Virus record (IMG/VR): IMGVR_UViG_3300012347_000302 | Coordinates: 20-64,019 of that record | From: a virus | Reading direction: 5' to 3' (one strand) | Length of the DNA: 64,000 bases | Shown here: piece after piece, positions 55,736-58,844 of the stretch | Layout of the letters: every line of letters starts with the position of its first letter | How positions within the stretch are numbered: the first letter of the stretch is position 1 | The notes under the pieces: generated by a model | Seen by the model: only the letters and a program-made list of their open reading frames with translations | Databases searched by the model: none | Told to the model about the DNA's origin: nothing | Translations under genes and position numbers: made by a program

Positions 55736-56398
55736 ATGGCGACCCCACCCCCCTCATACAGGAAAGGCCCCCCGTCAAAAAATAAAACGCACATCGAAAA
55801 TTTTGCAATACAATCCACCCAACACACAGGAGTGCGATTCCCTCCCATGGCATACCAGACAACCATTGACTACGACGTCCCGCTTGCGGACTTCTCTCCC
55901 ACCTTCGAGTCCCTCGAGACCCGGGTGGCTGCTGCCATGTCTGCATTGGTGGACACCGATGGGCTGCCAGACCCCTCCCAAATTGACGAAGACGACAAGG
56001 ATTTGGCCCGTGCCATCTTCTCAGGCCAGCAACTGGCCTCGGATCAGGACCTTTCGTCACCTCCGGTGGTGGTTTACCTGCAGTCGCTCCTCAACGAGTA
56101 CGACAAGACCGTCGTAAAGTCCGCGGCGCAGCTCAGAACATACGTAACCAACAAGCTTTTGGCAGAAACTGCCAATGCCGACCCACGAATCCGGCTCAAA
56201 TCGCTGGAATTGCTGGGCAAAGTGTCCGACGTGGGGCTGTTTACGGACAAAACCGAGATCACGATGCGCCACCGGCCGACGGAAGAGCTCGAACAGCTGC
56301 TGCGCGAGCGCCTGACACGCGTAATTGAGGGCGAAGTCGTGCCACAAACCCGGCCGGCAGCCCCAGAAATCTCCGTTGACGACGTAGACGCCAAGTAA
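55736..56398 (+). CDS. Putative terminase small subunit
   Basis: First gene of the + arm, directly upstream of TerL; helical RLKSLELLGKV..VGLF; alternative start 55847. Confidence 0.6.
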   Translation: MATPPPSYRKGPPSKNKTHIENFAIQSTQHTGVRFPPMAYQTTIDYDVPLADFSPTFESLETRVAAAMSALVDTDGLPDPSQIDEDDKDLARAIFSGQQLASDQDLSSPPVVVYLQSLLNEYDKTVVKSAAQLRTYVTNKLLAETANADPRIRLKSLELLGKVSDVGLFTDKTEITMRHRPTEELEQLLRERLTRVIEGEVVPQTRPAAPEISVDDVDAK

Positions 56399-56420
56399 GC
56401 CCTCAAAACCGCCAGAACAC

Positions 56421-58844
56421 ATGCAGCTCACACCCGCAATTGTCGAAAGACTGGTGAAAAGCATGCCTCATGCCGAGGCGGCGGAGCTGTTGGCCATGTT
56501 CGACGAGCTGGAAGAGCGCAAAACCGTACAGGCGGCGCAAGAGGACTTCTTGGCGTTCATCGCTGCGGTCGATAAGAGCTATAAATTCGGCGCCCACCTG
56601 AAAAGGCTGGGCTCTCTCCTGATGGATGTGGAGGAGAACATCAAAAACCGCATCGCCGTGAGCATGGCGCCGCGTATGGGCAAGTCCCAGATGATCTCCA
56701 TCTACTACCCCGCTTGGTACCTCGGCCGGCACCCGGACCACAAGGTGATCGTGGCGTCCCACACTGCTGACTTGGCGATTGTCATGGCACGCAAGGTGCG
56801 GAACCTGATTAACTCTCCGGAATACGCCCGAATTTTCCCGAACACCAAGATTGCAAGTGACGCCAAGGCGGCTGCCCAGTGGAACACCACTGCGGGCGGT
56901 GAATACTTTGCGATCGGTGTGGGCGGCGCGCTGGCCGGCCGAGGTGCCCACCTCATCATTGCTGACGATCCGTTGTCCGAGCAGGACATCAAGGCGGGTA
57001 ACACCAACTCGCTGGACACAGCCTACGAGTGGTTCAGTGCCGGTCTGCGAACACGTCTGATGCCGGACGGGAAAATCTGCGTGCTCCACTGCTTGACTGG
57101 GGACACCAAAGTCACCATGGCCGATTTAACCGAGAAGCGTATCCAAGACGTCAGGCCGGGCGATCGCGTGTACAGCTACGACGCAGGATCGCTTAAGCAG
57201 GCAGAAGTTCTAGGGTGGTCCAAACAGGGGTTAGATCATATTTACGCAGTGGCCTTGAAGTCTGGTGTTATAATCCGTGGTAACGAGCGGCATCCGCTGC
57301 TTGTCAGCCAAAACGGAGTAGAGCAATGGATCAAAATCAAGGACTTGAAAGTGGGGATGCCCCTCGTCTGTGTAACGAACCCGGATGCGCTGAGCCCCAC
57401 TACTCTCGAGGCAAGTGCAAGTATCACTACCACAAAGCCCGCCGCGAAGCCCCGGAAAGCCTTACGCCCACAGGTTGGGGTAAGTGGCGTGGGAAAACGT
57501 GCAGCACTGATGGATGCGATGCGGCGGTATTTGCCAAAGGGCTTTGCCTTGCGTGTAGCAACAAAGCTGTCTACGCTGAGCGCAAAGCGCGGGGTGGCCA
57601 CTACTGCCCCAAAAAGCGGAGTGACGCGCATCTCAAGCTGCAGTATGGGATCACTGGAGCTGACTACGACCGCATGTTTGCCGAACAGTCCGGGGTCTGC
57701 GCAATATGCGGGGAGCCTGCACACGATGGAAACACCCCAGCAGCATGGAAAGTCCGAAAGCTGGCTGTGGACCACTGCCACACAACTGGGCGAGTTCGTG
57801 CGCTCTTGTGCAACTCATGCAACCTCGTGGTCAAAGAGCGCAACACCCCAGACTTGCTCCGCAAAGCCGCTGGGTACCTTGAGCATCACGCTGGACGAGA
57901 TTGCCTCGATAACCCCTGACGGGGTGGAGGATGTGTACGACATTCAGGTCGAGGGCACTGAGAGCTTCTTGGCCAATGGCGTCGTCAGCCATAACACCCG
58001 GTGGCACCAGCGGGACCTGATCGGCCGGCTGCTCAAAGACTCTGCCATGAACGAGGGCGGAGACAACTACGAGGCGTTTGAGTTCCCGGCCATCCTGAAC
58101 GAGGGCACCGAGAACGAGAAATCCATCTGGCCAGAGCAGTGGACACTAGAAAGCCTGCAGCAGACTCGGGCGTCGATGCACCACATCATGTGGCAGTGGT
58201 ATGCCCAGTACCAGCAGAACCCCACAGCTGCAGAGGCTGCGATCATCAAGCGCGACTGGATCAAGTGGTGGACCAAAGACTCACCACCCCCGATTGACTT
58301 CATTGTGCAGTCCTTCGACACGGCGCTCACGACCAAGCAGCGCTCGGACTTTTCCGTTTGCCACACATGGGGCACGTTCACCAGCGAGGCGGACGGCAGC
58401 CAGAACGTCATCCTGCTCAACAAGGTCAAAGGCAAGTACGAGTTCCCGGAGCTCAAGGCCATGGCTCACGAGCAGTTTGCCGAGTGGCAGCCCGACAGCG
58501 TGATTGTGGAAGCGAAGGCCAGTGGCCAGCCGCTGATCGACGAGATGCGCCGCTCCGGTATTTTTGTGCAGGACTTTAGCCCGGGTAAGGGTCAGGACAA
58601 GATCGCCCGGCTCAACGCCGTTGCTGATATGTTTGCCTCCGGTCACGTCTGGTTCCCAGAGACGGCATGGGCGTCGCAGACTGTCGAGGAGATTTTGGCG
58701 TTCCCGTCCGGCGAGCACGACGACGAGGTGGACACGATGACGCTGGCCCTGCAGCGCGTGCGTAAAGGCGGGCTGTTGCAGCTTCGTACCGACCGAGACG
58801 ATAATGAGGTCTTTCACCGGTCCCGCCGGGCAGCGTATTACTAA
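56421..58844 (+). CDS. terL: Terminase large subunit precursor (807 aa incl. 302-aa intein)
   Basis: MAPRMGKS Walker A; LIIADDP Walker B; TRWH; YQQNP; QSFDTA and HDDEVD RuvC-like nuclease motifs. Confidence 0.95.
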   Translation: MQLTPAIVERLVKSMPHAEAAELLAMFDELEERKTVQAAQEDFLAFIAAVDKSYKFGAHLKRLGSLLMDVEENIKNRIAVSMAPRMGKSQMISIYYPAWYLGRHPDHKVIVASHTADLAIVMARKVRNLINSPEYARIFPNTKIASDAKAAAQWNTTAGGEYFAIGVGGALAGRGAHLIIADDPLSEQDIKAGNTNSLDTAYEWFSAGLRTRLMPDGKICVLHCLTGDTKVTMADLTEKRIQDVRPGDRVYSYDAGSLKQAEVLGWSKQGLDHIYAVALKSGVIIRGNERHPLLVSQNGVEQWIKIKDLKVGMPLVCVTNPDALSPTTLEASASITTTKPAAKPRKALRPQVGVSGVGKRAALMDAMRRYLPKGFALRVATKLSTLSAKRGVATTAPKSGVTRISSCSMGSLELTTTACLPNSPGSAQYAGSLHTMETPQQHGKSESWLWTTATQLGEFVRSCATHATSWSKSATPQTCSAKPLGTLSITLDEIASITPDGVEDVYDIQVEGTESFLANGVVSHNTRWHQRDLIGRLLKDSAMNEGGDNYEAFEFPAILNEGTENEKSIWPEQWTLESLQQTRASMHHIMWQWYAQYQQNPTAAEAAIIKRDWIKWWTKDSPPPIDFIVQSFDTALTTKQRSDFSVCHTWGTFTSEADGSQNVILLNKVKGKYEFPELKAMAHEQFAEWQPDSVIVEAKASGQPLIDEMRRSGIFVQDFSPGKGQDKIARLNAVADMFASGHVWFPETAWASQTVEEILAFPSGEHDDEVDTMTLALQRVRKGGLLQLRTDRDDNEVFHRSRRAAYY
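57090..57995 (+). mobile_element. Intein in TerL (Cys1...His-Asn | Thr+1)
   Basis: CLTGDT.V.MAD (block A); I.GNERHP.L (block B, with His); W...KDLK.G; VYDIQV.GT.SF.ANG..SHN (blocks F/G); removal restores ICVLH-TRWH. Confidence 0.93.
57326..57919 (+). CDS. Endonuclease VII-type (His-Me) homing endonuclease nested out of frame inside the intein
   Basis: GGAG at 57315-57318, ATG 57326; two C..GC...G.C repeats; YGIT..DY..M...Q.G.CAICG; LAVDHCH.TG.VR.LLC..CN; LLRKAA.YL. Confidence 0.88.
   Translation: MDQNQGLESGDAPRLCNEPGCAEPHYSRGKCKYHYHKARREAPESLTPTGWGKWRGKTCSTDGCDAAVFAKGLCLACSNKAVYAERKARGGHYCPKKRSDAHLKLQYGITGADYDRMFAEQSGVCAICGEPAHDGNTPAAWKVRKLAVDHCHTTGRVRALLCNSCNLVVKERNTPDLLRKAAGYLEHHAGRDCLDNP

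Follow-up and report, generated by a model that had tools for sequence, protein, structure and literature searches.

A predicted Endonuclease VII-family homing endonuclease gene nested out of frame in the terminase intein of an uncultivated freshwater virus

Results

The terL locus

The stretch of DNA analysed here (the window) is 64,000 nucleotides (nt) of an uncultivated freshwater virus, positions 20 to 64,019 of IMG/VR record IMGVR_UViG_3300012347_000302. Our subject is the intein in its gene for the large terminase subunit, terL, together with a nuclease gene that lies inside the intein. The record is 64,211 bp long, is rated 100% complete by CheckV and has a GC content of ~57%, and the window spans nearly all of it. 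The TerL precursor is encoded on the + strand at 56421-58844 (807 codons plus stop in the list of open reading frames, or ORFs) and is identified by its matches to PHROG 38 (terminase large subunit; 4.8e-88) and to Pfam Terminase_6C and Terminase_6N. The exteins, at 56421-57089 and 57996-58844 on the + strand, would form a TerL of 505 amino acids (aa) once spliced. They are separated by a class-1 intein of 302 codons (57090-57995, + strand; CLTGDTKV...NGVVSHN then T). The nested gene, of 197 codons plus stop, occupies 57326-57919 on the same strand, between intein aa 79 and 277, in the frame TerL+2, equivalently -1 ((57326-56421) mod 3 = 2). A complete Endonuclease VII (EndoVII) gene in a second frame inside the TerL intein had been described in an earlier reading of the bare sequence (the original prediction). 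Its coordinates are all correct, and the family assignment is upheld by the Pfam and PHROG matches given below.

The splicing domain of the intein

The intein is inserted directly 5' of the Thr in TRWH, in the C-motif, also called the ATPase coupling motif, of TerL. Pfam Intein_splicing (PF14890) matches TerL above its cut-off (E = 4e-13). Among 18 relatives, Cys1 and the block B residue His68 (in GNERHP) are invariant, as are His301 and Asn302 at the intein C-terminus, and the +1 residue is Thr (VVSHN then TRWH). In an AlphaFold2 model, the N-terminal Hint splicing half (57090-57392, intein aa 1-101, + strand) and the C-terminal half with blocks F and G (57873-57995, aa 262-302, + strand) have pLDDT (predicted local distance difference test) scores of 83-97 and 81-97, respectively. 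The TerL-frame linker between them (57393-57872, aa 102-261, + strand) is open, unstructured and weakly conserved, with pLDDT scores of 25-36, and a Pfam search of this linker gave no domain. Foldseek matched the intein model to mini-intein structures with a probability of 1.0, and the template modelling (TM) score with the splicing domain of Mtu RecA (2in0) is 0.90 on the target. As modelled, the Hint fold is present in both splicing halves of a class-1 intein.

The C-terminal Hint half has a mean pairwise amino-acid identity of 88%, and its DNA is 76-83% identical to that of mycobacteriophage cluster B terL. In a nucleotide search against cultured phages, the sole match was a segment of ~100 nt made up of blocks F and G and the extein junction. 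Because terL is essential, the genome is complete and intein-bearing alleles recur across many samples, we infer that the precursor splices to an active 505-aa terminase.

The nested nuclease

The product of the nested ORF belongs to the EndoVII family. It matches Pfam Endonuclease_7 (PF02945) over aa 102-186 with E = 5e-19 and 68.4 bits against a cut-off of 23.6 bits, spanning profile positions 3-81 of 82, and it matches PHROG 2914, 'endonuclease VII', at 5e-27. The EndoVII, or beta-beta-alpha-Me, core (57629-57883, + strand) carries the motifs CAIC, DHCH and LLCNSCN. When 42 nested proteins were aligned, C125, C128, D149, H150, H152, C162, C165 and N166 were invariant. A profile of these 42 proteins matched T4 endonuclease VII (1e7d; E = 3.5e-8) and aligned CAIC with C23/C26, DHCH with D40/H41/H43, and LLCNSCN with C58/C61/N62. 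In the nested nuclease of Mycobacterium phage AlanGrant (L001:1501-2085), DHDE stands in place of DHxH, the second His of the motif being replaced.

Upstream of the core are two Cys-rich, zinc-finger-like repeats (57371-57556, + strand; C16..C21..C31..H34 and C59..C64..C74..C77; pLDDT 81-93). Across the 42 relatives, C59, C64 and C74 vary little or not at all, whereas the number of repeats ranges from 1 to 3 or more. Repeats in the relatives have a sub-threshold likeness to Pfam Zf_WRKY19, and we regard them as a putative DNA-recognition module. The AlphaFold2 model of the 197-aa nuclease has a mean pLDDT of 84.9 and is poor only at residues 1-10 and 195-197. In a Foldseek search of the PDB with this model, the top-ranked structures were T4 EndoVII (1en7) and the beta-beta-alpha-Me enzyme Hpy99I, both weakly matched, and nothing was found at E <= 0.001.

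Relatives and the contents of the terL site

The same layout, with an intein at the same site (C[LM]TGDT…SHN then TRWH) and a nuclease in the +2 frame, occurs in the Mycobacterium phages AlanGrant and Phlyer and the Gordonia phages Affeca and Nordenberg. When a phage collection was searched with the nested protein by tblastn, the best matches (41-49% identity) were inside terL of AlanGrant, Affeca, Sedona, Keitabear, Angelicage, Pipefish and Phlyer. The TerL exteins nearest to those of the window are not from actinophages. They come from the Pelagibacter phages HTVC023P/027P, from DSL-LC04, and from Planktothrix or Synechococcus phages (37-43%).

The element is widespread in metagenomes. A scan of IMG/VR with the intein alone gave 8 loci, and metagenomes were therefore scanned with an alignment of inteins, which gave 80. 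Sixty of these were inspected and 54 had an EndoVII-like frame, always +2 and never in another frame or on the other strand. The same nesting was found within long Hint-containing ORFs on 20 contigs of prokaryote genomes or metagenome-assembled genomes (MAGs). These contigs are labelled Berkelbacteria, Oribacterium, Dysosmobacter, Endozoicomonas, Opitutaceae, Caulobacteraceae, Bradyrhizobium, Microbacteriaceae, Mycolicibacterium, Chloroflexota, Geobacteraceae, Saccharimonadales and others. Two short contigs with a nested-EndoVII terL, one from a MAG of Candidatus Iainarchaeum (L106) and one from Candidatus Berkelbacteria (L097), may be mis-binned phage, and such labels are weak evidence of the host.

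The intein at this terL site does not always hold a nested EndoVII gene. Four relatives have an in-frame LAGLIDADG endonuclease (Pfam Hom_end / LAGLIDADG_3) in the Hint domain (L055:315-1298, L064:1501-2496, L065:1003-2004 and L067:1501-2496) and no out-of-frame EndoVII in that place. Six others are mini-inteins of 148-189 aa (match regions about 1501-1977): five of them (L057-L061) retain, in the +2 frame, short remnants that resemble EndoVII, and the sixth (L063) has none. In an intein of 293 aa (L072), no endonuclease was detectable. The mini-inteins look like stages of endonuclease decay, and the varied contents of this one site fit a homing cycle of endonuclease gain, decay and replacement.

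One locus from an uncultured Alphaproteobacteria MAG (L117:2100-3800, on a 911-kb contig) was considered as a natural in-frame fusion of Hint and EndoVII and was rejected. It is a decayed copy with a stop in the N-terminal half of the intein, and within the zinc repeat the frame changes, so that the EndoVII core falls in the Hint frame. The locus is probably a prophage remnant.

Intein-less alleles and probable mobility

In protein searches, intein-less TerL proteins of 505 aa were up to 97% identical to the window exteins, and other intein-bearing TerL alleles were 56-91% identical overall. In a tree of exteins built on a top-120 list, the close clade has 7 intein-bearing alleles scattered among 79 intein-less ones, and the tree as a whole calls for at least 5-7 changes of intein state. 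The predicted homing site is split into GTGCTCCAC (57081-57089) and ACCCGGTGG (57996-58004), both on the + strand, which would be contiguous when the intein is absent. In two intein-less alleles (L094 and L095), GTGCTCCAC is joined to ACCCGGTGG without interruption and both are identical to the window flanks, so that the target proposed in the original prediction exists exactly as predicted. The L095 allele is on a contig of 198,311 bp from the Joint Genome Institute (Ga0620607_000042), ~3x the size of the 64-66 kb genome, which could mean that the assembly is a concatemer or that the genome is present in integrated or tandem form.

Two sequencing runs from freshwater metagenomes in which the intein is present (X1 and X2) also gave contigs that join 57087 to 57994 and skip 906 nt. 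Since X1 and X2 hold both forms, filled and empty alleles co-occur in the same sample. We think it probable that the nuclease acts today as the homing endonuclease for the C-motif site.

A different role for the nuclease would follow if it had been domesticated, either as an HNH cofactor of the packaging terminase or as a branch-resolving EndoVII like T4 gp49, with its position in terL being functional. Phage packaging machines are known to have HNH and EndoVII proteins as partners, and T4 needs its EndoVII for packaging. This general link, the location of the nested gene within terL and the purifying selection on it (see below) would all suit such a role. However, four intein-less relatives that are 96-100% complete (TerL identity 85-87%) have no PF02945 gene, which indicates that the phage can do without the nuclease and that the nuclease goes strictly with the intein. 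Among near-identical exteins it also occurs patchily, and its likeness to T4 EndoVII is confined to the catalytic core, with the dimerisation domain unmatched. Because the intein-less relatives are without PF02945 and the only PF02945 gene in the window's genome is the nested copy, we favor selfish homing over a housekeeping role and consider domestication unlikely.

Start codon and probable expression of the nested gene

The start of the nested gene was surveyed in 44 distinct inteins that have the EndoVII frame. In the window, the ATG overlaps the codon of the invariant Trp80 (CAA then TGG), taking its A from the end of codon 79 and its TG from the Trp80 codon. The triplet at this position is ATG in 33 of the 44 and GTG in the other 11. 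The third base of codon 79 is A in 33 of 44 despite a GC-rich background, and where codon 79 is four-fold degenerate the third base is a purine in every case (10/10). A Shine-Dalgarno (SD)-like GGAG (57315-57318, + strand) lies 7 nt before the nested ATG and consists of the GGA codon of Gly76 plus the next base. The codon of this invariant glycine is GGA or GGG in 34/44 relatives, and the SD-like motif is GGAG in 18, GGGG in 6 and GGGA in 5. Thus the start and the GGAG ribosome-binding site assigned to the nested ORF in the original prediction are both in place, and the start is kept in all 44. Comparable motifs precede ~18/42 other candidate gene starts in the window.

The ATG of terL itself, which is 22 nt past the stop of the ORF at 55736-56398, has no SD-like motif (56398-56421), and the ribosome-binding site of the nested nuclease is clearer than that of its host gene.

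The nuclease could in principle be made by -1 ribosomal frameshifting from the TerL frame, giving a fusion of the N-extein, the N-terminal part of the intein and EndoVII. The nested frame is indeed the -1 frame of terL, and in the window it runs open through the 14 codons that precede the ATG. However, no canonical X XXY YYZ slippery heptamer was found within 57284-57326, and 10 of 35 relatives have an in-frame stop at most 5 codons upstream of the nested start; in two of them (L028 and L033) the stop and the start abut. The conservation of the start codon, in most relatives with an SD-like motif, also speaks against a fusion. Because of these upstream stops, the conserved start and the lack of a slippery heptamer, internal initiation is much more likely than -1 frameshifting, and we regard the fusion as very unlikely. 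The nested ORF is therefore presumably translated from its own start, as far as its sequence signals go.

Which frame is under selection

Codon-position variability was measured in ten relatives (59-89% intein identity) that align without gaps over all 906 nt of the intein. Position 2 of a TerL codon is the third, or wobble, position of the nuclease frame. At TerL positions 1, 2 and 3, mean pairwise variability was 0.21, 0.15 and 0.44 in the N-terminal splicing half, 0.12, 0.36 and 0.18 in the overlap (intein nt 237-830), and 0.04, 0.07 and 0.44 in the C-terminal half. In 60-nt windows, the most variable position moves from TerL position 3 to position 2 at about intein nt 300 and back again at about nt 780. 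Between these points, the DNA is 78% identical on average, and mean pairwise amino-acid identity is 81% when the nuclease frame is read versus 55% for the TerL frame.

We regard it as highly probable, at the least, that the architecture of the locus is real and that purifying selection in the intein centre (nt ~300-780) acts on the nuclease frame. The variability, the identities and the AlphaFold2 model agree, and so we view the centre of the intein as a nuclease gene in which the terL frame is just kept open, encoding a ~160-aa unstructured linker. Both frames are truly constrained only in the outermost ~30-60 nt of the nested ORF, on either side. At one end, the final strands of the N-terminal Hint half share their DNA with the first ~10-20 codons of the nested ORF, which are disordered; at the other, block F does so with the last ~15 codons, which are variable. 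The original prediction had both frames constrained over ~590 nt. This was overstated for the centre, where the TerL frame is weakly conserved, and it holds for the two ends.

Depletion of stop codons in the TerL frame, another sign of constraint put forward in the original prediction, is only modest in a single sequence. With synonymous resampling of the nuclease gene, the probability that the TerL frame is stop-free is 0.012 under phage codon usage and rises to 0.10 when the gene's own codons are shuffled. We have set this measure aside as main evidence.

The pattern of selection also bears on the suggestion that the +2 ORF is a decaying relic, untranslated or inactive, in an intein that is inherited only vertically. 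Decay is seen elsewhere, in the mini-inteins with remnants (L057-L061) and in the broken alphaproteobacterial copy (L117). In contrast, the ORF is intact in the window and in relatives, its catalytic and zinc residues are all invariant, and the wobble periodicity and the higher identity in the nuclease frame point to ongoing purifying selection. We find it hard to credit that the window copy is such a relic.

Sequencing or assembly error, with two compensating indels disguising an ordinary in-frame HNH intein, has a negligible probability, and nothing in its favor came up. Independently assembled sequences and isolated, sequenced phages show the same frame relation, in 44 distinct inteins, and contigs from four independent public runs over 56900-58200 have no insertions or deletions, among them a contig from another study across 57026-58142 (~94% identical, 69 substitutions, 0 gaps). 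Compensating indels, the artefact to be feared according to the original prediction, are thus excluded.

The length of the nested ORF was rejected as evidence. Alternative-frame ORFs of 203 and 208 codons occur by chance inside the portal gene of this 57% GC genome. Because chance ORFs of ~200 codons occur, the case rests on the family match and on conservation rather than on length.

Discussion

We conclude that the locus is very likely a mobile terL intein that has its homing endonuclease in a gene of its own, overprinted on the intein centre in the +2 frame. In the mechanism that we propose, the nuclease would be translated from late terL mRNA by internal initiation at the AUG on Trp80, with the SD motif on Gly76, and the TerL precursor would splice to give the active 505-aa terminase. 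During co-infection, the nuclease would cut an intein-less terL at or near the GTGCTCCAC / ACCCGGTGG junction in the C-motif. Repair off the intein-bearing allele would then copy the intein and the nuclease together.

Several points weigh against this interpretation. The top-120 list behind the extein tree is biased to intein-bearing sequences in distant clades, and the intein may be patchily distributed because it was repeatedly and precisely lost rather than gained. The Foldseek match of the nuclease to T4 EndoVII is weak (E = 7e-3, TM ~0.3) and covers the catalytic core only. A T4-type C-terminal dimerisation domain was not detected, the profile match being to residues 10-70 of the 157-residue chain, and because of this we file the nested protein as an EndoVII-family nuclease and not as a T4-type resolvase. 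The intein fold likewise constrains Gly76 and Trp80, so conservation of the start and the SD motif is partly a by-product, and the signal specific to them consists only of the purine third base of codon 79 and the GGA/GGG bias at Gly76. Lastly, the functional parts of the proposal (translation, splicing and cleavage) are all deduced from sequence.

It is plausible that a free-standing homing endonuclease gene invaded a mini-intein; what related Hint domains hold at this site is either a LAGLIDADG endonuclease in frame or no endonuclease. More tentatively, we speculate that there was one ancient, co-adapted unit and not a series of repeated invasions. In such a unit, the start codon and SD motif would be hard-wired in the Hint fold, the linker would serve as a disordered tether that the element cannot do without, and synthesis of the nuclease might be gated by the ribosomes at work on terL. 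The unit would have spread across many phyla. This possibility attracts us without quite persuading us. If it is true, an ancient unit has spread via terL of phages of actinobacteria, proteobacteria, firmicutes, the Candidate Phyla Radiation (CPR), Chloroflexota and others.

Elements of this kind have been described before. Out-of-frame, EndoVII-like homing endonucleases of inteins were reported in TerL and other proteins of actinobacteriophages (Gosselin, Arsenault & Gogarten, bioRxiv 10.1101/2025.01.02.630785). The survey covered PhagesDB only, and the phages named include Affeca, Keitabear, Sedona and 'Angelicase'. This is the report to which the original prediction had alluded. The actinophage elements share with that of the window the host gene terL, the site before TRWH, the +2 frame and a start on a Trp codon. 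Judging by sequence, the window element is homologous to them and part of a much wider family. The original prediction had also proposed that an EndoVII case in this phage type would extend the phenomenon. With the same site, frame and start, the window element is a homologue of the actinophage elements and not an independent invention. There are some differences. The host phage of the window is an uncultivated freshwater virus, whereas the elements of the preprint are from actinobacteriophages; here, the family also extends to metagenomes and to contigs of many bacterial phyla. The nuclease of the window and that of AlanGrant (194 aa) alike have two zinc-finger-like repeats, whereas three shorter actinophage nucleases (151-153 aa) align from about residue 44-52 only.

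The insertion site is also known. The intein site TerL6-f, in the C-motif, also called the ATPase coupling motif, of mycobacteriophage terminases, was described by Kelley et al. (2016, mBio, PMC5050341). The site in the window is the same, likewise in a Terminase_6-type TerL, and in the passages that a term search of that paper brought up we found no mention of an out-of-frame endonuclease.

Nucleases overprinted on other host genes offer further comparisons. The 'ShiLan domain' is an out-of-frame HNH insertion in phage DNA methylases (Arsenault et al. 2025, Genes, PMC11855218); it has no splicing domain and no detectable ribosome-binding site, and leaderless initiation was suggested for it by the same authors. 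A cyanobacterial dnaX intein also has a homing endonuclease that is out of frame (Phillips et al., bioRxiv 10.64898/2026.09.14.751524). As in the window, in both cases a homing-type nuclease is overprinted on a host frame that stays open. Unlike ShiLan, the window element has a Hint domain and a conserved SD-like motif and start codon; it differs from the dnaX intein in its host gene, which is terL.

T4 endonuclease VII (gp49; 1e7d, 1en7) and the window nuclease have in common the zinc CxxC…CxxC and the D-H-x-H…N His-Me core. However, T4 EndoVII is without the N-terminal zinc-finger-like repeats of the window nuclease, and it functions in junction resolution, whereas the window nuclease presumably functions in homing.

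The window thus holds a further member of a kind already described in the 2025 preprint. What is added here is a freshwater context outside the actinophages, a quantified account of selection on the two frames, the fixed start, and direct evidence that filled and empty alleles share a sample. The locus is a well-supported case of overprinting inside a mobile element. The out-of-frame EndoVII intein, published for actinobacteriophages only, also occurs in abundant uncultivated freshwater phages and on contigs of many phyla. The switch in codon-position variability, the start fixed by Trp and the co-occurring alleles lead to testable predictions on the expression of the hidden nuclease, a matter left open by the published papers. 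Gene callers overlook such nucleases, and the linker is liable to be mislabelled as intein sequence. The nested nucleases are also candidates for new sequence-specific enzymes against a conserved terminase motif.

Other inteins and the rest of the window

Three metagenomic TerL relatives of 1141-1158 aa (P0017, P0031 and P0101) have, besides the C-motif intein, a further intein of ~340-350 aa elsewhere in terL. In one example, this site is after GRGAHL, in the Walker-B region.

In the window as a whole, the + strand carries the head and packaging genes and the - strand carries the replication genes. PHROG annotation of the large ORFs gave generic replication and structural matches only, and the sequencing runs are described just as freshwater or lake. 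The ORF just upstream of terL (55736-56398, 220 aa) may encode the small terminase subunit.

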